A DNA stretch of 64,000 nt from Promethearchaeota archaeon (lineage in GTDB: Archaea > Asgardarchaeota > Thorarchaeia > Thorarchaeales > Thorarchaeaceae): contig JBHLPF010000001.1 of the NCBI GenBank assembly GCA_048939765.1, positions 1 to 64,000 of the forward strand, written 5' to 3'. Made by a program: the position numbers and the translations under genes. Positions 1,666 through 20,612 of the stretch are shown piece by piece. Numbering within the stretch: the first letter of the stretch is position 1; each line of letters starts with the position of its first letter. Below the pieces are notes generated by a model, which saw nothing but the letters and a program-made list of their open reading frames with translations, was not told the DNA's origin and did no database searches.

Positions 1666-1954
1666 TCGTCCTATTCTAGGTCTTCTTAGAAGGCGAGTGA
1701 ACCCTCTCGACTACCTTCAACTCCCGTGTTCCACCAATCTCACGACACTCGTCGCCGACTGAGATTCACCCCACAAGTTGGCTCTTCTCTGAGTGTCACC
1801 AGTACTCTGGCCTGTAAAGGTCCCGCAATAACCTGTTCCGAGGTTTCCAACAGATGTCCCCATATCGTGAGCCGATAATGTTCTTTATACAGCTTATTGA
1901 CGGAGTAATGTTGAAGGATCAGCCTGCAAGATCTGGAATACAAGGGAATACACT

Positions 1955-3889: not shown

Positions 3890-3965
3890 GTTCATGCCTT
3901 TTGATGGCATTGGCAGTCATTCGCCTAAGGATGATGGTAACGGGCTAGTCTTGACACCCCATACG

Positions 3966-4019
3966 ACCTTTCAGATAGTAATCAATTGGTTTTTGTGGGA
4001 ATATCTTCCGCTGCATGCA
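3966..4019. repeat. Direct repeat, copy B (partner at 1611..1665)
   Basis: See copy A; overlaps the 3' end of the 3982..4674 gene. Confidence 0.9.
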
Positions 4020-4674
4020 CTGACCTGTTTCCTGTATCCCTAGGCCTGGTATGTCTGGAATAATGCTCGGGCCAGCCCGGCATAGGACTCGCCTTCCATG
4101 ATTCGAAATCAGGAAGATAGTTGTGAAGGTGAGTAAGTGTAAACTTGGTGTTCAACCGATCATTATCATGGAACAGACTCCTTCGATTTCCAGAGAAGAT
4201 AATCCGTTCAATCCTACCGTTCTTCATTCCGATGTCAATCCATTCTACATGGCTCCATTCTATGGCAATGCCGTATTTCTTCCATCCAATGCCAAGCGCA
4301 TTGATGATGATTGAGTCAGTCCGCCTCTCATAGAAATACATGCCAGCGGAGAATAAGAAGTAGATAGATAGGATAGCAAGGAAGAAGAGAAACGTCTCTG
4401 ACAAAAAGGTCTGAGTCACAAATCCGCTAAGAGTTGCTGCCAAGAGTATGATGATGCTAGTAAAGGTCAATGCGACAAAGAAATACAGAGCCTGTGAGCC
4501 GGTTACATACTGATGAAACACCTCATGATTGGGGTCCCCTTCAATTCTCTTGAGTAATTCACTGGACTTCATAGAATCCGGATGTAGCGTGGTTCTGAAG
4601 TGTCCCCATTCCTCGTCATATTCAGATAACTCTAGAATCTCTTCTTCTGTGAAGCCACTGTTGTCCTTGTCCAC
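3982..4674 (-). CDS. Hypothetical membrane protein (2 TM helices plus a possible PH-like C-terminal domain)
   Basis: Likely GTG start overlapping the TAG of the upstream gene, after GGAGG; two hydrophobic helices followed by IEWSHVEWIDI. Confidence 0.65.
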   Translation of the reverse strand: MDKDNSGFTEEEILELSEYDEEWGHFRTTLHPDSMKSSELLKRIEGDPNHEVFHQYVTGSQALYFFVALTFTSIIILLAATLSGFVTQTFLSETFLFFLAILSIYFLFSAGMYFYERRTDSIIINALGIGWKKYGIAIEWSHVEWIDIGMKNGRIERIIFSGNRRSLFHDNDRLNTKFTLTHLHNYLPDFESWKASPMPGWPEHYSRHTRPRDTGNRSVHAAEDIPTKTN

Positions 4675-5507
4675 TAGGAGCCCTCCTTGCGTTGGTGAGG
4701 CGTTCTTGGCGGTCTGCGCTTCTTTCTCGGTGCCACTTCCTTGACCAGAGCCTCGACCTCCTTCACAGTGCCCATTCTCTTCAAGACCGGCATCCCGTTG
4801 ATGCACACTCCTCTAGAGAGGCCGTAGTCTTCAAGCACACTTCTCTTATCAGTGTTGACGGATTTCACGACTACATCATACTTCTTCAGGTTCCTTGTCA
4901 CCTTGTCGACCATCCATCCGGACCAAGGGCACTGAGAGTTGAAGAGAATCTCGACGAGTGTCTGATCACTATCTGAAACAGCTCTCTTCCTTGAAGGTAA
5001 TAGTGATGGTTTCTCCTTTCCGCCTAGGTCCAAATGAAGCAAGACTCTTGTTCCGTCGCGATCTATTTCTCGAAAATCAAAACGCTTGAAGAAACTGGAA
5101 GGCATGTATTCCATGAAACCAAACCACTTGTCCCCCTGATACCCGAGTACTGTCAGACCCCCAAAAGACTTGCCCTTCTCAATGGCGCGATTAAGCAGAG
5201 CCTTTGCCGTTCCACTCCCCCATGCAGGCGGCACGACCCACATGCAGTTAATGAAGAGTGAGTCTTCCCCTGTGACGGGTTCTGATGCAAGCTCCAAAGG
5301 GCAGTACTCTATCAATCCCTTCTTTTCTCCTCTTGGACCAAGAGCAATGGTCACACCAAGGCCTCTTCTCATCATGGCTCTAAGCCATGACTTCCTATGC
5401 TCCATACACGGAGCCATGACCTCCTTCCACTTCTTGGGAACACTAGGGTCTAAGCAGATGGCCTCAACAAGGTCGATCTCTTCTGCATCCAGATCATGAA
5501 CTGACAT
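4674..5507 (-). CDS. GNAT acetyltransferase with C-terminal thioredoxin-like (YoaP-like) domain
   Basis: GLIEY, FINCMWV, WGSGTAKALL (GNAT motif A), FFKRFDF; C-terminal SQCPW. Confidence 0.75.
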   Translation of the reverse strand: MSVHDLDAEEIDLVEAICLDPSVPKKWKEVMAPCMEHRKSWLRAMMRRGLGVTIALGPRGEKKGLIEYCPLELASEPVTGEDSLFINCMWVVPPAWGSGTAKALLNRAIEKGKSFGGLTVLGYQGDKWFGFMEYMPSSFFKRFDFREIDRDGTRVLLHLDLGGKEKPSLLPSRKRAVSDSDQTLVEILFNSQCPWSGWMVDKVTRNLKKYDVVVKSVNTDKRSVLEDYGLSRGVCINGMPVLKRMGTVKEVEALVKEVAPRKKRRPPRTPHQRKEGS

Positions 5508-5595
5508 GATTGGTGTTAATCTGGGACAGGAATGACTTGAGTTTTTGGGGAGAATCAAGGGCTTTGGATGTATAGGCCTCGTGGGGCATGCCATG

Positions 5596-6081
5596 TCACA
5601 CAATGGGGATGAACAAGGATGCCATCACCAAGGAACCGAAGACCAATTGAAGAAGCCCCGAAACTACACCCGTGTTTCTTCGGAATTTTGCCAATATTCC
5701 AAGATGGACCAAGCCATTCAAGATACTATTTAGTGACACACCTAGGCCAAATAGCAATGCCCACGGAGCGCCATTGGCAATAGGAATGTAGAACAAGAAA
5801 CTCAGGAGCACGATTGAATGTGAAAATGCCACAAAGAATGCCTTGTCATAGAGTGATTCTCTTGGAGTGCCATCAGGGTTCTTACGAAGCTGACCCTCTA
5901 CTTCCCATGCTTTTGTGAAGTCTTCCTCTAGGAAGTGTAGCGCATTAGCGAAACATACCAGAAGAAACATTGTTGAAGAGTAGCTCAGAACCGAAACAAC
6001 ATCGGGAAATATCAGTCCAGCGAATATCGATGTTATGATGAGTAGAGTCAGAAAAGCAACAAGAGGCTTGAAGATCTTCAT
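5596..6081 (-). CDS. HXXEE-domain membrane protein
   Basis: LHFLEE motif in a multi-TM protein with N..H..G.....PG-like motif (NGLVHLG, NTGVVSG). Confidence 0.75.
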   Translation of the reverse strand: MKIFKPLVAFLTLLIITSIFAGLIFPDVVSVLSYSSTMFLLVCFANALHFLEEDFTKAWEVEGQLRKNPDGTPRESLYDKAFFVAFSHSIVLLSFLFYIPIANGAPWALLFGLGVSLNSILNGLVHLGILAKFRRNTGVVSGLLQLVFGSLVMASLFIPIV

Positions 6082-6589
6082 CGAAATCGATGTTGATGTT
6101 GTGAGTCGTACCTATCAATGTTCAGATATTCGCGAGATGAGGGAATTCTGGCAGCTAAGTACAGATTTGTGCAGCCATCTCAGGACTTATTAGAGAATGG
6201 GACTTCACTATAGTTAAGCCGCTCAAGAGGCGCCTGCCAATAGCGTCTGGGCTCTTCGTACTGAACAAGACCACGAACCCAACCGAAAGTGGTTGAGTGA
6301 CAAAGACAGGACAAGAACAGGTTGGCGGACGGTTAGGCTATGTGTCGAAGTACTGGTTCGATCGTACAAGATGCGCAAAAAGTAGCTTGACTGAACGAGA
6401 AGAATCGACCTCTGTTGGAGCTAAGACTTGGGCGGCTTTCCTGCGTTTTGGTACGTGTCAAGTCCTCTTCATTCAAGTGATTGATTGGGTAATTCTGACA
6501 AGATATTTAGGCCAGCGATGAGTAGTTGTTTTGAGGTTGTTGCCGGGAGATGACACCTCAGCACATGTATGTGTGGAGTGTGAGAGAAT

Positions 6590-7798
6590 TTGAGTAGTTC
6601 AAGAACGATGGCAATGTCCATTATCCTTCTGATAGTAGGCGTTGGTCTCGGCTTCGGAGTAGGTTTTCTGACCTATGCTGGCGGACCTGGGGGACCAGGT
6701 ACCGATCTGGGGACTCTGAAGGCGGGCTTTATTTACGTCGGCCCTATAGGAGACTACGGATGGACCAATGCCCATGATGTAGGAAGACGGTATGTAGATG
6801 ACAAGTATGACTGGCTCACCACTACGTATTTGGAATCAGTGCCAGAAGCAACGGCAGGAGATAGAATTGACTATCTGATCGAAAATGAAGGCTGTGATGT
6901 AGTCTTCACGACGTCTTTTGGTTTCATGGATGCGACAATTGCAGCTGGAGCTCGACATCCTGACAAGATGTTCTTCCACTGTTCAGGATATCTGAGAAGT
7001 GACAATGTAGGGACATACTTCGCAGACTTCTATCAGCTGTACTATCTAAATGGATTGATGGCTGGCGCACTTACCCAGACAGGCAAGTTAGGCTACGTTG
7101 CAGCATTCCCGCTACCAGAACTTATCAGACATATCGATGCGTTTGCGATTGGCGCTAAAGAGGTCAATGATTCAGCTACTGTTGATGTGCGTTGGCTTCA
7201 GACAGATTGGTTTGATCCTGCTGGCGCAACGACTGCAGCTAACGCCCTGGTAGGTACAGGAGTTGACATGCTTGCCTTCACAGAAGACTCTACTGCTGTG
7301 CCACTTGTGGCAAACTCTACAGATGGCGTGTATGTCTTCAGTCACTATTCACCAATGCAGTCCTATGCTCCGACTAGCACCATAAGCGGCCAATTGGCGG
7401 ACTGGGGCGTAATCTATGATGATATAATTCAGAAGATATACCTTGGTCAGTATACAAACACAAACCTGGAAGATGTCGACTATCTCTGGCTGCTTCAGGA
7501 GGGCGGAATCGAGCTCGGCGGTGAGTTTGGAGTTCCAATCAACCCCCTGTTCGAGGATGATCTCAAGGCTGTCAGCGTGGATGATCCCCTTCTTGGCACT
7601 ATTAGCGTCTATGATCTTGTCATGACAAGAATAGCGCAGATGAGCAATCCGAATGTGGTCTTTGATCCATTCTCAGGACCATTGGACTTCAAGAATGGAA
7701 CACAATGGTTGGCAGAGGGAGAACGTGCTGACATGGGAACGCTGTTGACTATGGATTGGTTTGTGGATGGACTAATTGCAGACATACCTACTCCATGA
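6590..7798 (+). CDS. BMP-family ABC transporter substrate-binding protein (nucleoside/purine type)
   Basis: N-terminal anchor; GFIYVGPIGDYGWTNAHDVGR, FTTSFGF and LAG..T.TGKLGYVAA-type motifs. Confidence 0.92.
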   Translation: MSSSRTMAMSIILLIVGVGLGFGVGFLTYAGGPGGPGTDLGTLKAGFIYVGPIGDYGWTNAHDVGRRYVDDKYDWLTTTYLESVPEATAGDRIDYLIENEGCDVVFTTSFGFMDATIAAGARHPDKMFFHCSGYLRSDNVGTYFADFYQLYYLNGLMAGALTQTGKLGYVAAFPLPELIRHIDAFAIGAKEVNDSATVDVRWLQTDWFDPAGATTAANALVGTGVDMLAFTEDSTAVPLVANSTDGVYVFSHYSPMQSYAPTSTISGQLADWGVIYDDIIQKIYLGQYTNTNLEDVDYLWLLQEGGIELGGEFGVPINPLFEDDLKAVSVDDPLLGTISVYDLVMTRIAQMSNPNVVFDPFSGPLDFKNGTQWLAEGERADMGTLLTMDWFVDGLIADIPTP

Positions 7799-7808
7799 CC
7801 TAGCTTAA

Positions 7809-7841
7809 GGGGGACTAAAGATCCCCCATCTCTTTCTTTTT
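7809..7841 (+). terminator. Hairpin plus pyrimidine/T-tract after the BMP gene
   Basis: GGGGGA-ctaaaga-TCCCCC followed by atctctttcttttt. Confidence 0.65.
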
Positions 7842-7918
7842 GATGGGTTTTTCTAGAAGCCTACTATTGAAATACTACAAATCCCCGTATAGGGTCTAAG
7901 AATGCAGGGGAAGTTCGC

Positions 7919-9505
7919 ATGGAAACTGCACTAGAGATGCGAGATGTCTGTAAGACCTACTACGGTGAGGGCGAGGTCGAAATACACGCGAATGACCATG
8001 TCAACTTCACACTCAAGAGAGGAGAGATACATGCCCTACTAGGTGAGAATGGGGCGGGAAAGAGCACTCTCGTGATGAATCTGTGTCGAAGACCTGACAG
8101 TGGAACTGTAATCATAGGAGGAAAAGAACTAGAATTAAGGACCCCCAAGGATGCGCTTGAAAATGGGATTGGAATTGCCTACCAGGATTTGTCTCGCACA
8201 CTGATTGAAAGGCATACTGTTGCGGAAAATGTCTTGAGTCTGACAAAGGGCTTCTTTCTATCCATAGACACAGTGGAAGAGGCTGTGAGGGAGGCACTAC
8301 AAAAGTTTGACCTGGGCGAACTTGACCCAAAGATGGTGGTATGGAAACTATCCGGCGGAGAAAAGCAACGAGTGGAGATTCTAAAGGCACTCATAACCGA
8401 TCCTGAAATAATCATCCTTGATGAGCCTACCTCCATGTTGACTCCGCCTGAGGTCGATGGCCTGTTTGCCCTTCTCGAGTCGTTGAAAGCTAGTGGAAAA
8501 GGTATTGTCATAATAACACATCATTTGGAGGAGGCCATACGGATAAGCGACCGGATAACAGTCTTGAGAAGAGGGAGGGTGGTGGAAACACTCGATGAGG
8601 GTCGAGTCGGGAAGCTAAAATCTGATCCTAGAAAGGGTGTTCGTGAGCTTGCTCAACTGATGGTGGGTCGAGATGCGTTGTATGACCTGAAGCGAAAAGC
8701 GTTGGATGAAGGACAAGTGATACTGGAAACCAAAAGCTTGTGTGTCGACAATGACATGGGGATGCAAGTCGTAAACAATGTCAGTTTCAGTGTACGAAAC
8801 GGGGAGATTTTGGGCATTGCAGGGATTGCGGGCAATGGCCAACGAGAGATGCTGGAAGCAATTGTACATCTACGAGATGTGAAGATAGGAGAGGTATTGC
8901 TACATACAGACAGTGGTGTAGTGAACATCACAAACATGCCTGTAGGCACAATCAGGAATCTAGGTGTGTCATACATTCCAGAGAATAGGAAGAAAGCAAT
9001 GGTGTTGGACCTCACTGTAAGAGACAACCTCTTGATGAGCTACTACTCTGACTCGAAAGGACTCTTGATTGACCGCCAAAAAATGGTCAAGTTGACGGAT
9101 GAGCTCATAGAGCAGTTTTCGATAGACACTCCCAGCCCCCTAGCACCCATGAGAAGTCTATCTGGTGGAAATAAGCAGAAAGTCGTCGTGGCCAGAGAGA
9201 TTTCACGGAAACCGTTGCAGGGTTCAAAGCGTATCCTGATTGCTGAGAATCCAACATTTGGGCTAGATGTTGCCACAACCCAATTCGTTCGCGAGGAACT
9301 TCTGAAGCAGCGTGATACAGGTGCCGCTGTACTTCTGATTTCCAGTGATCTGACCGAGATTCTCACTTTGTGTGACAGAATCAGCGTGATTTACAAGGGG
9401 GAAATCATTGGGACCTTGTCATCTGAACAAGCTGATCGGGAAACAGTCGGTCTCATGATGGGCGGATTTGTTGCTGATTCAATGACTGGTGAGGAGGGGA
9501 ACTAG
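7919..9505 (+). CDS. Nucleoside/sugar ABC transporter ATP-binding protein (double ABC domain)
   Basis: GENGAGKST, LSGGEKQR, ILDEPT; second domain GIAGNGQ and LSGGNKQK. Confidence 0.95.
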   Translation: METALEMRDVCKTYYGEGEVEIHANDHVNFTLKRGEIHALLGENGAGKSTLVMNLCRRPDSGTVIIGGKELELRTPKDALENGIGIAYQDLSRTLIERHTVAENVLSLTKGFFLSIDTVEEAVREALQKFDLGELDPKMVVWKLSGGEKQRVEILKALITDPEIIILDEPTSMLTPPEVDGLFALLESLKASGKGIVIITHHLEEAIRISDRITVLRRGRVVETLDEGRVGKLKSDPRKGVRELAQLMVGRDALYDLKRKALDEGQVILETKSLCVDNDMGMQVVNNVSFSVRNGEILGIAGIAGNGQREMLEAIVHLRDVKIGEVLLHTDSGVVNITNMPVGTIRNLGVSYIPENRKKAMVLDLTVRDNLLMSYYSDSKGLLIDRQKMVKLTDELIEQFSIDTPSPLAPMRSLSGGNKQKVVVAREISRKPLQGSKRILIAENPTFGLDVATTQFVREELLKQRDTGAAVLLISSDLTEILTLCDRISVIYKGEIIGTLSSEQADRETVGLMMGGFVADSMTGEEGN

Positions 9506-9506
9506 T

Positions 9507-10697
9507 ATGAACACGGAAGGTTTCGGGGCTATACTGAGCAATCTCAAGCGAAAGCTCGAAACAGGTATTGGATTTATCAGAAGAAAGCTCTGGCCTTTTG
9601 AAATAACATTTCGAAAGAGACCTTCCAAACTGACGTTTGAACAGTCTATCCGGGTAAGAGTCCTCTCACTTCTTCTCGGGCTGGCCGTTGTTGCAGTGAT
9701 ATTCCTTGTATATGGAATAAACCCGATAGAGCTCTATATCAACATCTTTAGAGTTGCATTCTTCACTAGATATGGAATCATCGAAACCCTTTCTCGCTTC
9801 ATTCCATTGTTGCTAGTAGCTATAGGCCTTGCAGTGCCGTTCCGAGCGAAGATAGACAACATAGGCGCAGAGGGCCAGCTCATAGTTGGGGCTATTGCAG
9901 CCACAGGAGCGGCATTCTCCTTTCAGTACCTCCCCAGTGCGGTCTTGATTCCAATCATGTTCATTGCAGGATTTGCTGCAGGTGCTCTTTGGGCATTACC
10001 CATTGCGATTTTCAGAGTGAAGAGCAAATTCAAGGGTTCTGATGTGGTAATTAGCTTTCTACTCGTCTTTCCAGCACTGTATCTCGTTGAATACCTTGTC
10101 ACTGGGCCGTGGCAGGACCCAGAGGGCTGGGGCTTTCCGCAATCACCGCTGATACCTGAAGCAGCTCAGATACCTCTGTTTCCTACAACGAGAATCCACT
10201 TGACCATTATCGTGGCTATTGCCCTCACATTACTGATTCATCAATATCTTGTAAGAACCAAAGAGGGAATTACAGAAACAAAGCTGGGATATGAGATAAA
10301 CGTGATGGGTGAGAATCCTGAAGCCGGAGAATCGATGGGGATGAGTTTCCTGAAGGTGGCGATAATCACAGTCCTGATCTCAGGTGGCTTAGCAGGTCTT
10401 GCAGGAGTAAGTGAGGTGGCAGGAAATCCCAATCTTTACCGGTTGCGGATGGAGATTTCTACAGGACTTGGTTTCACGGGCATTGCGGTTGCTTGGCTTG
10501 GCGGACTCAATCCCTTGGGAGTCATTGTGAGTTCTCTCTTCTTTGCGGGTCTTTTGGCCGGTGGAATTGAGATACAATCCGCAGGTCTCCCATTTGGTGT
10601 CGTGAATCTCTTCAATGGAGCCATTCTCTTCTTTGTGCTCGTGACAGAGTTCTTCCTACGATATACAGTTGAAGGGAGGTTACGTCATGACAATTGA
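9507..10697 (+). CDS. ABC transporter permease (BPD_transp_2 type)
   Basis: NIGAEGQ, SGGLAGLAG, GFTGIAVAWLG; multi-TM. Confidence 0.93.
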   Translation: MNTEGFGAILSNLKRKLETGIGFIRRKLWPFEITFRKRPSKLTFEQSIRVRVLSLLLGLAVVAVIFLVYGINPIELYINIFRVAFFTRYGIIETLSRFIPLLLVAIGLAVPFRAKIDNIGAEGQLIVGAIAATGAAFSFQYLPSAVLIPIMFIAGFAAGALWALPIAIFRVKSKFKGSDVVISFLLVFPALYLVEYLVTGPWQDPEGWGFPQSPLIPEAAQIPLFPTTRIHLTIIVAIALTLLIHQYLVRTKEGITETKLGYEINVMGENPEAGESMGMSFLKVAIITVLISGGLAGLAGVSEVAGNPNLYRLRMEISTGLGFTGIAVAWLGGLNPLGVIVSSLFFAGLLAGGIEIQSAGLPFGVVNLFNGAILFFVLVTEFFLRYTVEGRLRHDN

Positions 10698-11607
10698 GCA
10701 GACCGGGTCTCAGATTGTGATAGCTGCAACTTTCTTTCTGATACCCACACTGGGTGAAATGGTGTCCGAACGATCAGGTATATTGAACCTGGGAGTAGAG
10801 GGGATGGTCATCTCAGGTGCAGCAGGGGCCTTTGCGGGCGCACATATAACAGGCAACCTCTGGATTGGAGCGTTTGTTGGAGCTTTGGTTGGAGGCCTAT
10901 TGGCGCTCATACATGCAGTGGTAACGATCACGTTCAAACGGAATCAGGTCGTTTCTGGCATTTCGTTGACCATTCTTGGAACAGGACTGAGCAGTATTCT
11001 GGGTCTGGGTCTGATAGGTGTGCCAATTATTCCATTTCAGCCTGTGGCCATTCCAGGCCTCAGTGACATTCCAATAGTCGGCCCCATCTTCTTTGACAAG
11101 AATGTGTTCGTCTACTTCTCATACCTAATGGTGCCAGTTCTCTGGTTTATTCTCTTCAAGACGCGTTATGGTTTAATGATACGGAGTGTTGGGGAGAATC
11201 CGATGGCAGCCTACACACAGGGTGCGAATGTAGTTCGGATTAGGTACTTGAGCGTAATGTTCGGTGGGCTAATGTGTGGACTTGGTGGCGCATATCTTAC
11301 CCTTGCGTGGATACCAATGTGGGTTGAAGGCATAACAACCGCGCGCGGATGGATTGTCATTGCATTAGTGGTAGTTGGCCTGTGGCACCCCGTTGGCGCG
11401 TTTCTAGGGAGTTACATCTTTGGGGCATTCGATGTCCTGCGTTATACTTTCCAGCCATTAGGCATACCGACTGCCTTTCTGAACATGTTGCCTTCAATGT
11501 CGACAATCCTCTTCCTTGTCATTTGGGGGATTTTGTTGAACGTCCAAAAGGTAAAGCGTATCGTAGGAGCACCTACATCTCTATGTGTGCCATTTGAAAC
11601 CGATTAG
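10687..11607 (+). CDS. ABC transporter permease (second subunit)
   Basis: ERSGILNLGVEG, RSVGENP, RGWIVIALV. Confidence 0.93.
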   Translation: MTIEQTGSQIVIAATFFLIPTLGEMVSERSGILNLGVEGMVISGAAGAFAGAHITGNLWIGAFVGALVGGLLALIHAVVTITFKRNQVVSGISLTILGTGLSSILGLGLIGVPIIPFQPVAIPGLSDIPIVGPIFFDKNVFVYFSYLMVPVLWFILFKTRYGLMIRSVGENPMAAYTQGANVVRIRYLSVMFGGLMCGLGGAYLTLAWIPMWVEGITTARGWIVIALVVVGLWHPVGAFLGSYIFGAFDVLRYTFQPLGIPTAFLNMLPSMSTILFLVIWGILLNVQKVKRIVGAPTSLCVPFETD

Positions 11608-11647
11608 TGCAGGTATGAAAGTGAATAGCAAATCCTGAGGTCATGAT

Positions 11648-12019
11648 TCACTCTACTATCTCTTCAGACTCTGGAAACCAAGGCGGGCATACCATGCATA
11701 GAAACACCAAGTCTGAGTCGCCTGTGTTCTCGATATATTGGCTGCCTTTTGGAGGAATGTAGACCACATCACCGGGTGAAACCGCCTCTGCCTCATCATC
11801 AATATGCATGACTCCTGCGCCCTGTATGATATAGTAGACCTCAGATGCCTCAAAGAACATGTGTGGATGTGATGTGTCGCCTGGTTTTAGAATAGCATGA
11901 GCAATGCTGTAGTCAAGCTTAAGGTCCTCCTTTTCATGGCGTGGATTGATGAGCTCTCTGAGTATGGTACCATCCAAAGCCACTATTTCTTCACAGTCAT
12001 CAAATCGCCTGATCCACAT
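11648..12019 (-). CDS. Cupin-domain protein
   Basis: PH....EVYYIIQG.G and PGDVVYIPP motifs. Confidence 0.88.
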   Translation of the reverse strand: MWIRRFDDCEEIVALDGTILRELINPRHEKEDLKLDYSIAHAILKPGDTSHPHMFFEASEVYYIIQGAGVMHIDDEAEAVSPGDVVYIPPKGSQYIENTGDSDLVFLCMVCPPWFPESEEIVE

Positions 12020-12083
12020 GGAACCCAACTCAATTGCGGGCTGCCAGTTTAGCCGTATTTGTTTTGTGTACGTGGTGTTCCTC

Positions 12084-13283
12084 TTAGAAGTCCGGAGGGC
12101 TCTTGTTATACCACTTGGGGATCGTCTCCATCGCGGGTTTATAGCCGTCTAGCACATAGCGTGAGATGACGAGTCTTTGAATCTCGCTGGTGCCTTCATA
12201 GATCTCGTAGAGTTTCGCGTCTCTGAACAGCTTCTCCACTGGGTATTGATCGATGTATCCATACCCGCCATGAACTTGCACAGCTTGATGAGCCACTTCC
12301 ATGGCGGTTTCTGTCGCCATGACCTTCGCAACGCTGGCTGGAATTGTGGGGTCCATTCCATTATCAGCAGCCCAGGCAGCCTTCAAGTATAGGAGTCGTG
12401 CGGCCTCGATCTTGGCATACATGTCCGCCAGTTTGAAATCGATGACTTGAAAGTCCTTCAGTTTCTGATTGAATGCTTCCCTTCTGTTGACATATTCTCT
12501 AGTGTACTCCATTGCAGACCGAGCCAGTCCTGTTGCGAAGGCTGCTATTGATGGCCTCGTCTTGCTGAAAGTCTGCATTGCAACTCTGAAGCCCTTCCCC
12601 TCTTCACCCAGCAGGTTTTCAGCTGGAACTCTCGCGTCTCTAAACATGACTGAAGAAGTTGTGGATGCTCTGTGTCCCATCTTCTCTACCGGACGACCGG
12701 TCTTCACTCCAGGCGTGTCTGCATCAACGATGATGGCACATAACGCCTTGTGTCTTTGGCTGGGATCAAGACTCGCAAAGACTGTGAAGTAGTCAGCGTG
12801 AGGCGCATTTGTTATCCAGAACTTGGATCCGTTGAGGATGTAATGGTCACCGTCCTTCTCTATGCGTGTCTTGATTCCAGCTACATCGCTGCCCATACCA
12901 GGTTCTGAACATGCGAAGCTCACAAACTTCAGGTCTTCCATGAGTGGACGTAGATACTTCTCCTTCTGCTCGTCGTTCCCAGCAACAAGGATCGGTTCAG
13001 CACCAAGACTGTTCACATAGATGCTGGTGGTCATTCCCGCACAGCCTGCAGCCATTTCTTCCACTGCAACGCACTGCTCTATGGCTCCTAGGCCCAAACC
13101 ACCATACTCCTCTGGTATAGCCAAGTTCATGAGACCTGCTTCCCAGCACTTCTTGATGATGGGACGGGGAAACTCACCTGTCTTGTCATAGTAATGAGCG
13201 TATGGGATCATATACTTCTGAGCGAATTCACGTGCTCTGTTTCGTAGATCAGTCTGCTCTTTTGTGAGATTGAAATCGACCAT
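12084..13283 (-). CDS. Acyl-CoA dehydrogenase
   Basis: [33 protein letters not shown]. Confidence 0.96.
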
Positions 13284-13362
13284 TATTCTCCCTCATTGAT
13301 ATTGAAACTGGGATGGGTAGGACAGAGCAGTATAAGGCCATTGCCAAATGGCAAAGAGGTGG

Positions 13363-15630
13363 CTAGGTATCGGTCTGGCTCGTAATCTGACGAACTACCT
13401 CAGGAAGGCTCCATTTGAGTTCCAGTTCAAGTGCACCCTCTCCAGGACCCGGACATCGCCTTACACATGTCCGGCATGCTACGCACAGCCAGAGGTCCAC
13501 CTCGACTTTTCCAAAGCCAGGCGAATCGTCTGTTAGAACAATATCTTTCTTGGGCTTTTCAGTTGCAAGACTCTTCACAGTCTTGTAGAAGAGTGATTTA
13601 TTCACGGGCAAATCGTCGAGAGCCTCATCGGAGATATCAAAGATTCTGGATATCTCCATCACCGGCTTCAGCTCAATCGCGTCCTCGGGACATGCTATTT
13701 CACAGGACTTGCAGCCAAGACACTTGGAAATGTCCCACTCGATTGTGCCAAAGCCCAGCAGGGGAGCATAACCCATCATTGCCTTGTATTCATCGAGAAC
13801 TGAAGGAACATCTACCTCTGCCAAATCGTCCAATGTCACCTTTGGGCGAGTACTGGGAAGCTTGGCACGTGTACGGTAGGAGAGAGATACAGCTGAGCGT
13901 ATCTTCTCCTCGATTCCCATGAGCAACTTTTCTCCCACGACTGCTCCCTCAATCGTGAGCTTGATTAACTTGTCACGACCCTTTGATAGGGTTTCTAGAG
14001 CATTGACGACTTTGCCAATGTCCTCAGCCTTCAGTTCTTGAAGAAGGGACTCAAGTGCAGATGATGCCTCATTGAGTTGAAGTGCCAGAGAACTTGCTGT
14101 TTCAACTGCAAGTTCTGCCTCCGTGGGGGTTCTAGGAACATCATAGAGAAGATAACCGTGACTCTCACCTGCCGAAGTGAGCAGCTCATCTCTCTTCATG
14201 CGAAGTAGATGCTGTAAGATTCGGTCTTTTGGGATGCTGGTCTTCTCTCCAAGATCCTTAGCGGTCATTGCGCCTAACTCACGGATTAGAATGAGAATTG
14301 TTCCGCGCTCAAGCTCATTATCCAGATAGCTGGACATCATTCTCTCATAGACTTCTGGGTCTAGCTTCTCCCCATAGACGTTGGTCCCAGAAACAAGGCT
14401 AGGACCCTTTTCGAGTGTAATCTTCAGTCTGAATCTGGCAAAGGCCTCAAGACCTGCAGAAACAAGTAGGCGCAGATCTTCAGAGCTGTCAGCGGGCTTT
14501 GATTTCAGAACAGCCTCAGTCGCCCGATCAACAGTTTCACGCAGGTTGTTCATTGATTCAGCAAGACTGGTTTCATCGTACTGGCCAAGCTTCTGAAGCC
14601 TATCGAGCAAAGGCTCCATTCTTTGTACCGATTTGCCAACAGAAACTTGTGCATCACCTTCAAGCGATTTTCCTATGCCATTGAGCTGCTGCAATACTCT
14701 CTTGAACATCAAAGTCGAGTCTGGTACTGATTCAAGAACTCGTGAGAATACGGGTGCTTCCTCTTCAAGGCCGACCATCTCGACCTCGCCTCTTTGAATC
14801 ATGCTCACTATGGCTGCTTGGATATCGGACGATTGTGTTTCCATCAGTCTGCTAATCTCAAGGACAGTGCGTGAGCCCATCTTTGACAGGATGAACATGA
14901 TCACCCCGCGTCTGAGCTCAGTCAGTATATTCTCAGAAACTAATTGTAATGCTCGTGTTTCGTCTATCCGACCTTCACGAATCCCTCGCTTCACCTGAGC
15001 CGAGGTCCTGAGGAATGGGCCATATCTTGTCTTTGTGCCAAGCTTCTGAAGAGCGTCTAATGCTGATGTGACATCCTCCGGAATTCCAGAAATGGCCTCA
15101 GATATTGAACCGACCAGTAGCTTCAGCTCAGATTGGGCTGATTCCGCAGCAGCCTCCGCAGCAGTTTCATACTCTGTGATGGTGTCTTCAATCTGTGTTA
15201 TCAAGTCAGACACCGGACTCAGGACTGACTCGATATCGACCGTGGCAGTGTCCTCAATCTCGTCTGTGGCTTCTAGAGCCTCCAATGTGCCACTTATCGA
15301 ATTCAGAAGCCCACGAGTGCCCTCTGTGTCACGGATAGAAACAGCCTCCTGAAGGTGCGTGACAGCCTGCCTTAGCAGCCCTCTATCGGATATTTGAGAG
15401 ATGATGTCAGACTTCTCCGAGGTATCAAGGAACTGTTTGAAGTATGCATCAGGAAATGCAAGAATCTCAGCAGCAAGTGGGTCTAGCTCGCTCTTCAGAG
15501 TGGCTATCTCTCCACTGACTTTGCTGAGGGGGATAACAGCTTCTTCTTTCAGACCGCCAAGTGCCATAACCATGTCCATCATCCGTCTTCGTTTGGGTGC
15601 CATATCGGACAGACTCTTGGACTCGCTCAT
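13363..15630 (-). CDS. Large helical protein with two winged-helix-like repeats and a C-terminal 2x[4Fe-4S] domain; last gene of the hdr operon
   Basis: ATG overlaps the TGA of upstream hdrA; CLGCKSCEIACP and CVACRTCVRRCP; two similar wHTH-like segments. Confidence 0.75.
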   Translation of the reverse strand: MSESKSLSDMAPKRRRMMDMVMALGGLKEEAVIPLSKVSGEIATLKSELDPLAAEILAFPDAYFKQFLDTSEKSDIISQISDRGLLRQAVTHLQEAVSIRDTEGTRGLLNSISGTLEALEATDEIEDTATVDIESVLSPVSDLITQIEDTITEYETAAEAAAESAQSELKLLVGSISEAISGIPEDVTSALDALQKLGTKTRYGPFLRTSAQVKRGIREGRIDETRALQLVSENILTELRRGVIMFILSKMGSRTVLEISRLMETQSSDIQAAIVSMIQRGEVEMVGLEEEAPVFSRVLESVPDSTLMFKRVLQQLNGIGKSLEGDAQVSVGKSVQRMEPLLDRLQKLGQYDETSLAESMNNLRETVDRATEAVLKSKPADSSEDLRLLVSAGLEAFARFRLKITLEKGPSLVSGTNVYGEKLDPEVYERMMSSYLDNELERGTILILIRELGAMTAKDLGEKTSIPKDRILQHLLRMKRDELLTSAGESHGYLLYDVPRTPTEAELAVETASSLALQLNEASSALESLLQELKAEDIGKVVNALETLSKGRDKLIKLTIEGAVVGEKLLMGIEEKIRSAVSLSYRTRAKLPSTRPKVTLDDLAEVDVPSVLDEYKAMMGYAPLLGFGTIEWDISKCLGCKSCEIACPEDAIELKPVMEISRIFDISDEALDDLPVNKSLFYKTVKSLATEKPKKDIVLTDDSPGFGKVEVDLWLCVACRTCVRRCPGPGEGALELELKWSLPEVVRQITSQTDT

Positions 15631-17792
15631 TCGGTCACCTCCATCCACTTACCAGCCGTTCCCTTGTGCACCGGTGTCGGTCCGAGCTTCTTGGCTCTCT
15701 TAACCATCTCACGAATCGCACTTGTGAATCTCTCAGGTTCAGCACTGAACATTCGAAACATATCGACACGTTCACCTTTCCAGCCAATTGCATTTAGTAT
15801 ATCCCGAGTGACATCAACTTGGACTTGAGCAATCTCGTTGCCAGTTCCGCCAATATGACATCGGTCTGTTTCACAGGCGGCAATCATCACGGTACTGGCT
15901 CCATGCTCAAAGGCCTTCAAGATATCAATGATTGAGACTCTTCCTGCACATGGCACTGGAATCAGTCGAGAACTAGCATCGTACTCCATCTTTCGAGTGC
16001 CTACGATGTCTATCGTAGAAACAGAGCACTCCTCACAATAGAAACACAAAGTGATTGGGTACTCGGAGCCCGCTCCGTCAAGAACAGCCTCAATTTCAGA
16101 CCATAACTGTGAGTTTGATAGAAAATTGAGTTGTGTGGCACCTGAAGGGCATAGGCTCTGACATACTCCGCATGCGTGGCAATTCAGAGTGTCAATGGCT
16201 GCTTTGAACAATAACTTCTGTGTCTCGTCCTCCTCCTCAGAGTCAGTCTGTTCGATCATCAGGGGGACACCACGAGGACATTGCTGTGCGCAAAGACTAC
16301 AGCCCACGCATTCATCAACATCAAGGACTGCGCCTCGTGCGAGTTTCTCAATCTTACCTCCCTGAAGCTCGTTATGCAGAACGAGCGCAGCAGCTTGGGC
16401 ATCTGTGACTGCTTCAAAGACAAACTGTGGACGTGTAATTGCACCTACTGCAACAACACCGCGTCTGCGTGTTTCAGTCCGTCTTAGCTTACCATAGAGG
16501 TCCTTGACGTGGCCATCCTCCTCAAGTGCATAGCCGAGTGTTTCAGACAGTTCAGTTATACCATCCGATGGAAGAATGGCGGTAGAGAGAACTACAAGAT
16601 CGGGAGTACTCTCTAGATATTGGTTGAGAAGTGAGTCATAGATGCGAATGTGGGTTTCGTCATCGCTCTCCCAGACCATACTGACTCTGCCTCGAATGTA
16701 ATCCACTCCTCGCTCTCTAGACTCCTTGTATATCATCTCATTCTCGAATGGTACACGAATGTCCATATACACGACCTTTACATTTGCATCAGGGTTCTTC
16801 TCAAGAAGCTCCAATGAGTTATCAATTGCAAATGTGCAACAGAGTTTGCTGCAGTCGCGCTTATAGTCCTCAGACCTACTGCCAACACATTGGACCATTA
16901 CCACATCCCTCACAGGCTTTCCATCCGAGGGACGTGTCATGTTACCATCTGTCAACATGCAGGAGAGCTCAAGCTGTGTTATGACGTCTGGATTCTTTCC
17001 ATAATGATACTCGTCCATCATTGTAGGTTTGAACTCTTGGAATCCTGTCGCCAAGACCACTGCGGAAGTATGTAGTGTCTTGTCATCCTCCTCATCTGGA
17101 ATAGTATAATGAATTGTGAAGTTGCCCATCTCGCCATCAGCAAACTTCACAGTCGTGTCAGTCATCACGTCGATATTCTTGTCGTTCTCAAGGGCGTTAA
17201 GTCGGCCGCTAAAGACCTCTTTTCCTGACTTACCTGTGGGTGCGACAACTGGCAATTGGACCACATGACCACCAATGGTTGATTCACGTTCCATCAGTGT
17301 CACGTGGTAGCCCAAATTAGAAAGACTGAGCGCAGCCTCGACTCCGGCAATCCCGCCTCCTATCACTGTCACATGAGCAGGGACCTCTTTCGTTTCAGAA
17401 ACAAGGGAGATAGAACCAGCTGAACGTGCTAATGCACCTCTTATCATGTCTAAGGATTTCTTGGACGCCTCAGAAAGGTCATTGTGGACCCATGCAGAGT
17501 GCTCGCGGATATTCACATATTTGATCCTCGAGGGGTCCTTTCCACGGGACTGGAGATACAGATCGATGCGGGGCTGAATCTTCTGACTTGTACAGGCTGC
17601 AATTACTAGTCTGGCCTCATTCTCATCCAGTAGTTTAGCTATGGTTTCAAGTCCTGAGTCTTGGCAGACTAGGTTGTGTACGGTCACCGAACCAGCCAAG
17701 TCTAGATTTCCAATCTCTGTTTCCAAGAACTCATAGTCCAGCTTCAGCTGGGTCCCGCATGTACAGAGAAGGACTGGCGATTTACTGCTCAT
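15627..17792 (-). CDS. hdrA: HdrA-like flavoprotein with fused C-terminal MvhD domain (QmoB-like architecture)
   Basis: CTCG/AACTS N-terminal domain, VIGGGIAG, QCVGSR..CSKLCC, two CxxCxxC ferredoxin motifs, C-terminal CEEC..VPCAGRV..CETDRCH. Confidence 0.9.
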   Translation of the reverse strand: MSSKSPVLLCTCGTQLKLDYEFLETEIGNLDLAGSVTVHNLVCQDSGLETIAKLLDENEARLVIAACTSQKIQPRIDLYLQSRGKDPSRIKYVNIREHSAWVHNDLSEASKKSLDMIRGALARSAGSISLVSETKEVPAHVTVIGGGIAGVEAALSLSNLGYHVTLMERESTIGGHVVQLPVVAPTGKSGKEVFSGRLNALENDKNIDVMTDTTVKFADGEMGNFTIHYTIPDEEDDKTLHTSAVVLATGFQEFKPTMMDEYHYGKNPDVITQLELSCMLTDGNMTRPSDGKPVRDVVMVQCVGSRSEDYKRDCSKLCCTFAIDNSLELLEKNPDANVKVVYMDIRVPFENEMIYKESRERGVDYIRGRVSMVWESDDETHIRIYDSLLNQYLESTPDLVVLSTAILPSDGITELSETLGYALEEDGHVKDLYGKLRRTETRRRGVVAVGAITRPQFVFEAVTDAQAAALVLHNELQGGKIEKLARGAVLDVDECVGCSLCAQQCPRGVPLMIEQTDSEEEDETQKLLFKAAIDTLNCHACGVCQSLCPSGATQLNFLSNSQLWSEIEAVLDGAGSEYPITLCFYCEECSVSTIDIVGTRKMEYDASSRLIPVPCAGRVSIIDILKAFEHGASTVMIAACETDRCHIGGTGNEIAQVQVDVTRDILNAIGWKGERVDMFRMFSAEPERFTSAIREMVKRAKKLGPTPVHKGTAGKWMEVTE

Positions 17793-17798
17793 GACTCA

Positions 17799-19055
17799 TC
17801 ACTTCCTCCTCTGGAGAATCTTGCTCACAACGGCCCGTGCCTGGTTGACACTCTCAGGAACTTCTGCGGGGCCTAATGCGCCTCCACAGGCATAGACATG
17901 GTCTCCTGTGACTACTTCGTTCTCAGAGATTGGATCGGCGGGTCCCACATAGCCGCTTGCCGAATTCGTCCCCAGAATATTGAGAAGCTCGTCGCTAGCT
18001 TCTGGGGGTTCCAATGCAGAAGAGAGCACCAGCAGGTCTACTGCAAATTTGAGATACTTGTTCAATAACGAGTCATATACATAGACATCCAGGGTGCCAT
18101 CATTCTGGCGCTCCACTCGACTAACTCGACCACGTACGAACTCGACTCCAGCCTCACGCGTTTCGCGGTAGTATCTCTCATGGCGATCGTAGGTTCGAAT
18201 ATCCATATAGACGACAGTCACTCTCGACTCGTCACGCTCTCTGGATATAATGTTGGCATGCTTCAAGGCGAATACGCAACAGATCTTGGAACAGAATGGA
18301 TAGTAATTCTCATCCCTGCTGCCTACGCATTGAATCATCATCACACTCTTGACTTGAGCCCCATCTGAAGGCCGTACCAATGCTCCAGCAGACTCTCCGT
18401 TTGGATCAAGCATCTGTGCCAGCTCTAGTTGTGTGATAACATTGGGCAGTTTCCCATAGCCATATTCGTCCATTATAGAGGGCTTCATCTCATGATAACC
18501 AGTTGCGATGACAATGTCTGAAACTGTGATAGTTTCTTCAGTCTGAGTGGCACCCAGATTGATTGCCCGCGTTGGACACTCCTCCTCGGCCTTCTTCGCA
18601 CCGTCATCTGATTTCTCAGGATTATAGGTGACTGCCTGTGGCTGACATTGGGGAGAGACCAGGTGAAATGCATCCGAAATGTCGGTGCAAAGACCACACA
18701 TGGTACACTTCTTTGGGTCCACATAGACAGGACCTACATCAAGTTCAACTGAGAATTTGCCTGGCGTTCCAGAGATTGCTTTCACTTTTGTGTCAATTTT
18801 GAGGTCTATATTTGGTTGATCGACCATAGCGCTTCTGTAGAAGCATTTCCTGATGCCCGGGCGCCAGCGATTACCTTCAAAGCAGTAGAAACAGTCGTCT
18901 GTGGGAAATGCTTTGTATAGCTCAAGGGCATTGCCGCCAATAGTTCTCTCTCTGTCAATCAGGATAGACTTGATACCGTTGTCTGCCAGCTCCACTGCTG
19001 CAGTCATCCCTGCTACACCGGCACCTATGACTAGAACTGGACCAGTCAATACCAT
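17799..19055 (-). CDS. hdrA: Short HdrA-like flavoprotein (QmoA-like size)
   Basis: VIGAGVAG, KAFPTDDCFYC, QCVGSR..CSKICC, YMDIR, FVRGRV. Confidence 0.9.
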   Translation of the reverse strand: MVLTGPVLVIGAGVAGMTAAVELADNGIKSILIDRERTIGGNALELYKAFPTDDCFYCFEGNRWRPGIRKCFYRSAMVDQPNIDLKIDTKVKAISGTPGKFSVELDVGPVYVDPKKCTMCGLCTDISDAFHLVSPQCQPQAVTYNPEKSDDGAKKAEEECPTRAINLGATQTEETITVSDIVIATGYHEMKPSIMDEYGYGKLPNVITQLELAQMLDPNGESAGALVRPSDGAQVKSVMMIQCVGSRDENYYPFCSKICCVFALKHANIISRERDESRVTVVYMDIRTYDRHERYYRETREAGVEFVRGRVSRVERQNDGTLDVYVYDSLLNKYLKFAVDLLVLSSALEPPEASDELLNILGTNSASGYVGPADPISENEVVTGDHVYACGGALGPAEVPESVNQARAVVSKILQRRK

Positions 19056-19062
19056 GGTCACC

Positions 19063-19929
19063 TCAACCAGACAGATGGTCTAGGATAGGGTCTGCTGGAA
19101 CCCGGTTCATGCTTAGACCTATCTCCTCCTCATCCATGCCCATTGCCAATGCCAGAATCTGTGGATACAGAAGAACTGGGAGGTCATAGACCTCTCCGTA
19201 TGAGTCCTTCAAGCCAAGCTGCTGGAGATCAAGCTGATTCCCACAGGCAGGACAGACCACAGTAATGAACTCAGCACCAGCCTCTTTCATCGACTTAATC
19301 TTATCCCGAGCAAGTCTGATGGCAAGTTGCTCATTCACTGGTAGAACTGTGGCACCACAACATTGCTTCCACAGAGGATAGTCGATTACTGTTGCCCCAG
19401 TAGCGACGACCATCTCCTGTAGGATCTCAGGTCTGAATTCGGTCACATCTACCGGACGCAAGAGATGGCAGCCATAGTGGATTGCTATTCCTACTCCGTC
19501 CAGAGGCTTTGTGACTCTCTTCTTGATCTCTTCAATACCTATGTCCGTGTACATTGCCTCGACTATATGTCGAACGTTGATGGACCCCTTGAACTCCAGC
19601 CCCATCTTCTTCAATTCAGCGTTGATTTTCTTCAAGTCGTCCTTGTGATGCTTGAGGTGGTGGAGTACATCTTTCAGAGAACCAAAGCAACCATTGCATG
19701 GTGTCACAATGTCATGACCGCTCTTCTCAGCGATAGCGATTGTACGTGCATTCACTAATAGCCAGCCAAAGTTATCAATCGAACGTAGATTTGGGCTGCC
19801 GCAACATGCAACATCCTCAAGATAGTTGAGGTCCATGCCTAGAGCTTCAGCCACCTTGAACATCGAAGCCTCATAATTGGGGTAGTTGGCTGGAACACTA
19901 CAACCCATATACAGACTGTAGACTGGCAT
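19063..19929 (-). CDS. hdrB: Heterodisulfide reductase subunit B (two CCG domains)
   Basis: YMGC, ACCG, TPCNGC, HYGCHLLRP, QCCG, VCPAC. Confidence 0.94.
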   Translation of the reverse strand: MPVYSLYMGCSVPANYPNYEASMFKVAEALGMDLNYLEDVACCGSPNLRSIDNFGWLLVNARTIAIAEKSGHDIVTPCNGCFGSLKDVLHHLKHHKDDLKKINAELKKMGLEFKGSINVRHIVEAMYTDIGIEEIKKRVTKPLDGVGIAIHYGCHLLRPVDVTEFRPEILQEMVVATGATVIDYPLWKQCCGATVLPVNEQLAIRLARDKIKSMKEAGAEFITVVCPACGNQLDLQQLGLKDSYGEVYDLPVLLYPQILALAMGMDEEEIGLSMNRVPADPILDHLSG

Positions 19930-19930
19930 C

Positions 19931-20473
19931 CTACTCTCCACCCTCCACAAGTTTGTTTGTCCGAGTGTTCTTCAGAATTGAGGTTATGCCATCTGTTGAG
20001 AGGCCTGGAACTTCTGGTTCTAATTCTAGGTCTTCACGTTCCCAATCATTGATGACTTCATAGAGCTGTCCCTTCTCAATCAGTTCCTTTGCCAAAGCAA
20101 GAACATTATCAGGTACAATGCCTTTTTCAGCAGCTAGATTCTTGCAGTCAAAGAATATGTCTGTGACTCGTACATTCTGAGGACAGCGCTCTTGGCATTG
20201 GAAACAAGTCAAGCACTCCCAGATCTCCTTGCTTGTTAGAACTTCATCTCGCATACCAAGGAGTATCATGCGAATCAGTTGGTGGGGTTTATAGTCCCAT
20301 TGATTTGCAATTGGACAGGCAGCTGTGCAGGTTGAGCAGGCAAAACAGGCCGCTAGCTCCTCACCATTGGGCATGCTACTAATTTCATTTCGAAACGTGG
20401 GATCCAATTTGGACATATCAATTGGATCAATCAGGGTTACTGGAGGACCAGCATGTTCTTCAGTTTCTGTCAT
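19931..20473 (-). CDS. hdrC: Heterodisulfide reductase subunit C
   Basis: CFACSTCTAACP and IWECLTCFQCQERCP. Confidence 0.94.
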   Translation of the reverse strand: MTETEEHAGPPVTLIDPIDMSKLDPTFRNEISSMPNGEELAACFACSTCTAACPIANQWDYKPHQLIRMILLGMRDEVLTSKEIWECLTCFQCQERCPQNVRVTDIFFDCKNLAAEKGIVPDNVLALAKELIEKGQLYEVINDWEREDLELEPEVPGLSTDGITSILKNTRTNKLVEGGE

Positions 20474-20537
20474 GAGGGGGTGCACCTCTCGGATACGACC
20501 GATGCAGTGACTGAATGCAACAGCCGATTTGGTGACC

Positions 20538-20551
20538 TATATTAAAAGTTT
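20538..20551 (-). promoter_or_regulatory. BRE/TATA promoter of the hdr operon
   Basis: Minus strand AAACTTTTAATATA upstream of hdrC. Confidence 0.6.
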
Positions 20552-20612
20552 GCAGAAGGAACACGTTTTGGGATGGAGCACTGAAGGGGGAAACTGAAGG
20601 GGATTAGGAGGA

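Follow-up and report, generated by a model that had tools for sequence, protein, structure and literature searches.

In heterodisulfide reductase (Hdr) complexes, the donor arms Mvh, Fdh and Elp attach via MvhD (PMC12350162). Variations on this plan have been described. In BamF, the long MvhD of class II benzoyl-CoA reductase, a winged helix-turn-helix (wHTH) docks the input module BamI (preprint 10.64898/2026.04.10.717634). In anaerobic methanotrophic archaea (ANME), an NfnB domain is inserted in HdrA9-11 of ANME-1, and complementary domain loss in tandem HdrA genes has led to the proposal of heterodimers (PMC9012536). Hdr-type complexes are numerous in Asgard archaea, mostly without an assigned electron donor or disulfide substrate, and are central to models of energy metabolism and syntrophy in this group. 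Here we describe a gene located in an hdr operon of a Promethearchaeota archaeon (Thorarchaeaceae; assembly GCA_048939765.1), within a stretch of 64,000 nucleotides (contig JBHLPF010000001.1, positions 1 to 64,000; hereafter the window). We use X as a working name for the 755-amino-acid (aa) product of this open reading frame (ORF; 13363-15630, minus strand).

Judging from sequence and genomic context, X probably belongs, as a stoichiometric accessory subunit, to an Hdr-type flavin-based electron-bifurcating complex, and probably acts there as adaptor and electron relay and not as a regulator. The complex would comprise HdrB, HdrC, a short HdrA, an HdrA-MvhD fusion and X. Bound to MvhD, the C-terminal domain of X would place its two predicted [4Fe-4S] clusters next to the MvhD [2Fe-2S] cluster, and would thereby extend the electron path, in one direction or the other, between MvhD/HdrA and a partner. 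The ~600-residue N-terminal part, built of coiled coils and of two modules with the order helix - NVYGEK loop - winged helix, would serve as a protein-protein scaffold positioning the redox partner, be it donor or acceptor in the case of the plain 755-aa form. In some Thorarchaeota this partner appears to be part of the same polypeptide, in the form of an NfnB/GltD-like FAD/NAD(P)H domain. Functionally, X is a further type of adaptor or wire subunit of Hdr bifurcating complexes, which is a known kind.

X is named only generically by the sources that list it. We found no family specific to X among the curated families of Pfam and NCBIfam, no such structure in PDB, and no paper describing it in a literature search. 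Its relatives in the database numbered 249. The 120 of these that were listed have lengths of ~735-760 aa, share 60-100% identity with X, come from sources named Thorarchaeota or Promethearchaeota (and one Hodarchaeota), and carry labels such as "4Fe-4S dicluster domain-containing protein" or, at JGI, "ferredoxin/MarR".

Linkage of X to hdr genes and fusions of its modules

The ATG start of X at 15630 shares the tetranucleotide ATGA with the TGA of the upstream 721-aa hdrA-mvhD gene, and an acyl-CoA dehydrogenase (ACAD) gene follows X across a gap of 79 nucleotides. Among 400 sampled Asgard genomes, X was found at full length in 84 of the 85 genomes of the window's own GTDB family (f1), in every genome of three other families (3/3 in f22, 2/2 in f23 and 2/2 in f24), and in none of the remaining families. 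The relatives in f22-f24, which bear the NCBI names Helarchaeota or Lokiarchaeota, are 20-26% identical to X. The order hdrC-hdrB-hdrA(short)-hdrA/mvhD-X-ACAD was found in 10 of the 11 genera examined in the window's own family. The sole exception is a single-contig genome (L028, G004:C1, 8961-11641) in which an MvhD-like match of 140 residues is all that precedes X and the ACAD gene, with no hdrA, hdrB or hdrC match within the 20-kb stretch.

In the Helarchaeota- and Lokiarchaeota-type (Hel/Loki-type) families the genes are rearranged to hdrA(short)-hdrA/mvhD-X-hdrC-hdrB, with stops and starts overlapping or abutting and without the ACAD gene. That linkage to hdr genes has been kept despite divergence to ~23% identity and rearrangement is the strongest contextual argument for X as an Hdr subunit. 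Together with the fusions of the ferredoxin module to MvhD or HdrA, those of the winged-helix module to MvhD and the NfnB-like variants (all below), this linkage in lineages so distant and with a different order supports well the proposal of a scaffold or electron-input subunit, one half of a preliminary description of this gene made from the window alone; conservation of gene neighbourhood across Asgard genomes was one of the checks that it had named. One Loki-type locus (L035, G160:C5, 12645-16527) also carries, on the opposite strand beyond the hdr-X operon, genes for two paralogous 377-aa Fe-S proteins and a gene of the HpaB/4-hydroxybutyryl-CoA dehydratase family. These opposite-strand genes are not conserved in other Hel/Loki loci.

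The modules of X were also found outside X, separate or fused. The ferredoxin module occurs as a stand-alone gene of ~160 aa in Odin-, Baldr- and other Asgard lineages, and in all five loci examined it adjoins a short-HdrA/HdrA-MvhD pair (directly downstream in four, divergently upstream in one). Fusions place it behind MvhD in Bathyarchaeia (P0159), behind HdrA in Thermoplasmata (P0169), and in front of MvhD in a 304-aa protein encoded at a second Hdr locus of the window's own genome (contig C94). The winged-helix module is likewise found joined to MvhD. A "long MvhD" of 244-275 aa is encoded directly behind hdrA in other Asgard families. Its first part is a canonical MvhD, with residues 18-148 matching solved MvhD chains; behind this comes a tail made of a helix, the loop ENVYGEKVPEEEF and a winged helix. 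This tail (residues 160-248 of a 268-aa MvhD-wH protein) aligns to residues 390-479 of X with a BLASTP E of 2e-7, and was found in 104 of 135 f9 genomes as well as in several further families. An MvhD with an extension of the type "GNxYGE + wHTH", mentioned in the preliminary description, does therefore exist.

X itself also occurs with an additional redox domain. In variants of ~972 aa, found in 7 genomes of 3 genera, residues ~205-417, that is, the first of the two winged-helix units (unit 1) plus the linker behind it, are replaced by a GltD/NfnB-like domain that combines a FAD/NAD(P)H fold with an Fe-S domain. The closest paralogues of this part are found on contig C86 of the window's genome, as inserts in two HdrA::NfnB genes (52-56% identity). 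A third architecture was seen in a variant of at least 1114 aa that reaches the end of its contig (L044, G394:C52, 3-3344): here an NfnB-like domain (Fer4_20 plus Pyr_redox_2) sits at the ..TRYG junction around residue 205 and unit 1 is kept. Pfam detected Fer4_20 and Pyr_redox_2 in the variants P0124 and L044 and not in the X of the window. We had considered unit 1 as a receptor for a detachable NfnB module; this idea is weakened, since both unit 1 and the NfnB-like domain are present in the X variant of genome G394.

Because each module of X is elsewhere joined to MvhD or HdrA, and because an NAD(P)H module can be grafted into X, we interpret X as a probable subunit of the complex. X and the long-MvhD tails would then mark the physical site of electron exchange between the Hdr complex and its partner; the variants that carry an NfnB-like domain suggest that NAD(P)H is one such partner.

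The window's genome contains other Hdr loci. The second (L048, G000 contig C94, 6192-15216) has the order hdrC-hdrB-hdrA(short)-hdrA/mvhD, then the 304-aa protein, in which two ferredoxin-type half-units are fused to MvhD, and after it a canonical 676-aa hdrA and a second hdrC-hdrB. This locus may encode a double-Hdr supercomplex. The third and fourth loci lie on contig C86 (L056, G000, 1691-17863) and contain HdrA genes of 1129 and 913 aa, both with inserted NfnB/GltD-like domains and adjoining genes for MvhD and for an MvhG/MvhA-like [NiFe] hydrogenase. The X operon has no hydrogenase, Fdh or Flx gene. The earlier statement that MvhAG, Fdh and Flx are not encoded is hence accurate for the operon; for the genome it fails, given the MvhAG-like genes on C86.

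Domain architecture of X

X is an acidic protein (pI 4.8, net charge -35). The AlphaFold2 (AF2) model, built with 43 homologues, has a mean predicted local distance difference test (pLDDT) of 78.9 and a predicted TM-score (pTM) of 0.42, and is mostly helical, with long helices throughout. Pfam recognises only the C-terminal two-cluster ferredoxin (residues 630-727) and, below threshold, TrmB (residues 447-483; 18 bits, with a curated cut-off of 25.6). In the N-terminal region K13-R14 is invariant and an acidic coiled coil spans residues 131-205; the region is closed at residue ~205 by the ..TRYG junction, which is the insertion site of the NfnB-like domain in the variants.

Two winged-helix units follow. 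Unit 1 consists of a basic lead-in (RGIREGRID) and winged helix 1 (residues 224-300), and unit 2 of a GTNVYGEKL loop (residues 415-423) and winged helix 2. In the AF2 model both run from a long helix through two short ones into a beta-hairpin (H224-251/H256-263/H267-279/E283-289/E292-297 in unit 1, H425-452/H457-464/H468-480/E485-490/E493-497 in unit 2), so that on the predicted model each has the three helices and the beta-hairpin wing of a wHTH. Together with their helical lead-ins the units align in hhalign with 98.5% probability (E 2e-15, up to 148 aligned columns). They are thus homologous, and X contains an internal duplication. Weak Pfam matches to winged-helix families recur across the 43 family members: TrmB in 30, MarR_2 in 21, HTH_5 in 14 and HTH_9 (RPC82) in 11, with a best E of 7.8e-7. 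With Foldseek, the model matched 1KU9 with a probability of 0.98, and the best whole-model matches were RPC62/RPC82 (E 5e-4, low TM-score) and proteins of the MarR/PadR type. For residues 1-620, ESM Atlas returned only X's own Thorarchaeota cluster (score 0.76), and a PDB profile search with the whole X family gave generic ferredoxin matches and none in this part.

The C-terminal domain, aligned with the stand-alone relatives of ~160 aa, consists of two copies of the arrangement helix - P..I.(L/V)P - GFG - strand - CxxCxxCxxxC. What looks like an insert of about 65 aa between the cluster motifs is the lead-in of the second copy, and is therefore a trait of the family and not an insertion peculiar to X. 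All eight cluster cysteines are invariant in two alignments, of 43 and of 35 sequences. In the AF2 model of X as a whole, the ferredoxin fold starts at residue 626. The domain has the two [4Fe-4S] motifs of the Pfam Fer4 clan (Fer4_7, 37.6 bits against a cut-off of 27), which are predicted to be occupied by clusters. A separate model of it (pLDDT 80.5) shows, as a prediction, the pseudo-twofold (beta-alpha-beta)2 core of such ferredoxins, and VIA superposed it on the cores of 7NP8, 8ZQD and 1DUR with Z 6.9-7.8 (root-mean-square deviation 1.2-1.7 A over 55-57 residues). Both Foldseek and VIA recovered only this common ferredoxin core; the lead-in segments were spanned by no match listed.

The architecture given in the preliminary description agrees with these results. 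It had noted the overlap of the ATG with the TGA of hdrA-mvhD, the mostly acidic and helical character of the ~755-aa protein, two related wHTH-like units, which we place at residues ~224-300 and ~425-500, and GTNVYGEKL ahead of the second; Foldseek and AF2, the former among the checks that it had suggested, return wHTH folds for the units on the predicted model. Its two C-terminal [4Fe-4S] motifs are present as well, with 68 residues between them in place of the ~65 quoted.

Known subunits compared and alternative roles

Among described proteins, long MvhD and BamF are similar to X in being part of an HdrA-type bifurcating complex and in having a winged helix that docks a protein partner and not DNA, and the long MvhD of Asgard archaea shares with X the helix - NVYGEK - winged-helix unit itself. 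Unlike them, X lacks a FlpD/MvhD domain (no PF02662 match) and a [2Fe-2S] site of its own, MvhD being encoded by the preceding gene, and has the unit twice, to which ~300 coiled-coil residues and a ferredoxin domain with two clusters are added. The likeness to BamF is drawn by description, and in the local PDB copy only canonical MvhD chains of ~130-140 aa were matched, the extension being unaligned. After BamF, X would be another instance in which a redox machine employs winged-helix folds for docking. If they are so used, the "MarR/ArsR regulator" labels that these genes receive automatically probably mislead.

Polyferredoxins of the MvhB/FwdF type (PMC12350162; PDB 5T5I, 9SW6) resemble X in being Fe-S proteins that bear cofactors only and connect Hdr with a partner enzyme, and they are the best sequence matches for its cluster motifs. 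However, they hold 6-14 clusters and have no helical or winged-helix part, whereas X has two motifs, each with a family-specific lead-in of ~35 residues, and falls short of the six or more tandem [4Fe-4S] motifs of polyferredoxins. X scored 20 bits with the Vhu_polyferre model NF045874 (cut-off 600) and 19.7 bits with NF042909 (cut-off 375), and so did not match a described polyferredoxin subunit; such a match would have spoken against the preliminary description. The ElpA/ElpB and FdhA/FdhB arms (PMC12350162) also attach via MvhD and feed electrons to HdrA, and ElpA is a catalytically empty structural subunit, as plain X appears to be; these arms are unrelated to X in sequence and fold, and their F420 or formate sites are missing in X. 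HdrA with an NfnB insert (ANME-1 HdrA9-11, PMC9012536; contig C86) offers a parallel for grafting an NfnB/GltD-like NAD(P)H module into an Hdr component, although in the variants the graft sits in X and not in HdrA, and the window's X is without it. Finally, RPC62/RPC82 of RNA polymerase III (four extended winged helices and a coiled coil) likewise has tandem winged helices between helical segments in a protein scaffold. With TM-scores of 0.09-0.17, no Fe-S domain and an unrelated process, this likeness is probably no closer than the common winged-helix superfamily.

Several observations weigh against X as a relay subunit. No substrate-oxidising domain is recognisable in the plain 755-aa form, the winged helices match DNA-binding families of the MarR/TrmB type, if with weak significance, and the inter-domain arrangement in the AF2 model is uncertain (pTM 0.42). 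In addition, gene order within the Thorarchaeota family is generally conserved, unrelated genes included: the PCNA and primase genes upstream of hdrC are as syntenic across the family as the ACAD gene. For this reason within-family order carries little weight, and the argument rests on the distant families and on the fusions.

The resemblance to MarR- and PadR-type regulators in Foldseek, the weak TrmB, MarR_2 and HTH_5 matches and the moderately basic recognition helix of unit 2 (PKDRILQHLLRMKRD) would suit a redox-sensing transcription factor or moonlighting subunit, whose Fe-S clusters would sense the redox state of Hdr while the winged helices bind DNA. We regard such a role as improbable. 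Units 1 and 2 have net charges of -4 and -2, and are mostly negative across the 43 sequences, in line with the charge of the whole protein; the wing of unit 1 is EVEMVGLEEEAP, and in unit 2 conservation is highest in a hydrophobic/acidic wing, Y-x-L-Y-D-V/I-P. To our knowledge, a plain two-cluster ferredoxin is not a known type of sensor. At the hdrC promoter there is no inverted repeat and only the BRE/TATA (B recognition element and TATA) block is strongly conserved; the upstream regions of 11 genera have this block in common and, directly downstream of it, a weakly conserved stretch. The combination of a basic recognition helix or wing with an operator, as in DNA-binding wHTH regulators, was thus not found in X, judged by charge and by the hdrC promoter. 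Furthermore, the winged-helix unit serves as an MvhD tail in more than 100 genomes, a flavoprotein domain can replace unit 1, and RPC62/RPC82, the top structural match, uses its winged helices as a protein scaffold. A DNA-binding role of the winged helices is, on this sequence evidence, not supported, and the redox-sensing DNA-binding protein that the preliminary description offered as its other possibility loses ground accordingly to the scaffold or electron-input subunit, which the distant hdr linkage, the fusions and the NfnB-like variants favour. A dual function, with X as an MvhD-bound Fe-S relay whose winged helices bind nucleic acid in a particular redox state, has likewise only a slim chance of being correct; if true, it would mean that, in the archaea most closely related to eukaryotes, the electron load of Hdr and gene expression are directly coupled.

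X could also be an output wire comparable to MvhB, which would take up low-potential electrons at the ferredoxin domain inserted in HdrA and hand them to a docked acceptor, for which ACAD is one candidate. MvhB docks on that HdrA domain in methanogen supercomplexes (PMC12350162), the ferredoxin core of X is like polyferredoxin units (FwdF is the top sequence match, VIA Z 7.2), and the ACAD gene follows X in all 14 Thorarchaeota loci examined. We nevertheless consider this unlikely. The fusions involve MvhD (in both orders) or the C-terminus of HdrA, and not the inserted ferredoxin domain, and the NfnB-like variants indicate a site of NAD(P)H-linked input or exchange. The adjacency of ACAD is itself weak as an indication: TATA-like and Shine-Dalgarno (SD)-like elements in the gap behind X suggest that the ACAD gene has its own promoter, the gene is missing from Hel/Loki-type loci, the unrelated PCNA and primase genes are equally syntenic, and elsewhere the genome encodes EtfAB for its acyl-CoA dehydrogenases. 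A functional coupling between X and ACAD was considered and downgraded on these grounds. Very improbable, in our judgement, is a transient assembly or maturation factor that delivers clusters to the heterodimeric HdrA complex or holds its subunits. The large acidic coiled-coil scaffold, the location in the operon and the faster evolution of X across the family (54-69% identity, compared with 65-83% for the Hdr subunits) would fit such a factor. By contrast, translational coupling suggests near-stoichiometric synthesis, the cluster cysteines are strictly conserved in 35-43 diverse sequences, and fusions to MvhD, HdrA and NfnB-like modules fit a permanent redox role.

Features of the locus

The positions of X, its domains and the neighbouring elements are collected in the table. 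The HdrA-MvhD fusion matches NCBIfam HdrA2 with an E of 3e-139, and the short HdrA is its presumed heterodimer partner, by analogy with the tandem HdrA genes of ANME.

Table. Coordinates in the window of gene X, the segments of its product and neighbouring elements
Feature	Position	Strand	Basis
Gene X, 755-aa winged-helix/ferredoxin protein	13363..15630	-	ORF and translation; stop codon 13363-13365
N-terminal helical region, residues 1-205	15016..15630	-	AF2 helices, invariant columns, variant junction
Repeat unit 1, residues 206-300	14731..15015	-	AF2 secondary structure, hhalign against unit 2, charge
Helical linker, residues 301-414, invariant E407-K408	14389..14730	-	AF2, conservation
Repeat unit 2, residues 415-500	14131..14388	-	AF2; Pfam TrmB/MarR matches; BLASTP E 2e-7 to MvhD-wH protein
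Coiled-coil region, residues 501-600	13831..14130	-	AF2 helices 504-531, 535-556, 567-590
C-terminal 2x[4Fe-4S] ferredoxin domain, residues 601-755	13366..13830	-	Pfam Fer4 families, alignment, domain model
Cluster motif 1, C637-x2-C640-x2-C643-x3-C647-P648	13687..13722	-	Cys conservation
Cluster motif 2, C716-x2-C719-x2-C722-x3-C726-P727	13450..13485	-	Cys conservation
hdrA-mvhD fusion, 721 aa, presumed docking partner of X	15627..17792	-	Pfam FlpD residues 582-704; NCBIfam HdrA2
Short hdrA, 420 aa, without N-terminal Cys domain, DCFYC retained	17799..19061	-	Domain matches
hdrB, CCG domains	19063..19950	-	Domain matches
hdrC, conserved ATG start at 20473	19931..20473	-	Domain match; alignment of 11 orthologous upstream regions
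BRE/TATA-like promoter element CAAACTTTTAATATAGG, ~65 nucleotides upstream of hdrC	20536..20552	-	Conserved in upstream-region alignment
Conserved TATA-like element GGCCTTATACTGC in X-ACAD gap	13327-13339		
SD-like GAGGGAG in X-ACAD gap	about 13290-13296		

For hdrC, the GTG start at 20485 given by the ORF tool is not conserved, and the ATG listed in the table (MTETEE...) is conserved in the 11 aligned orthologous loci.

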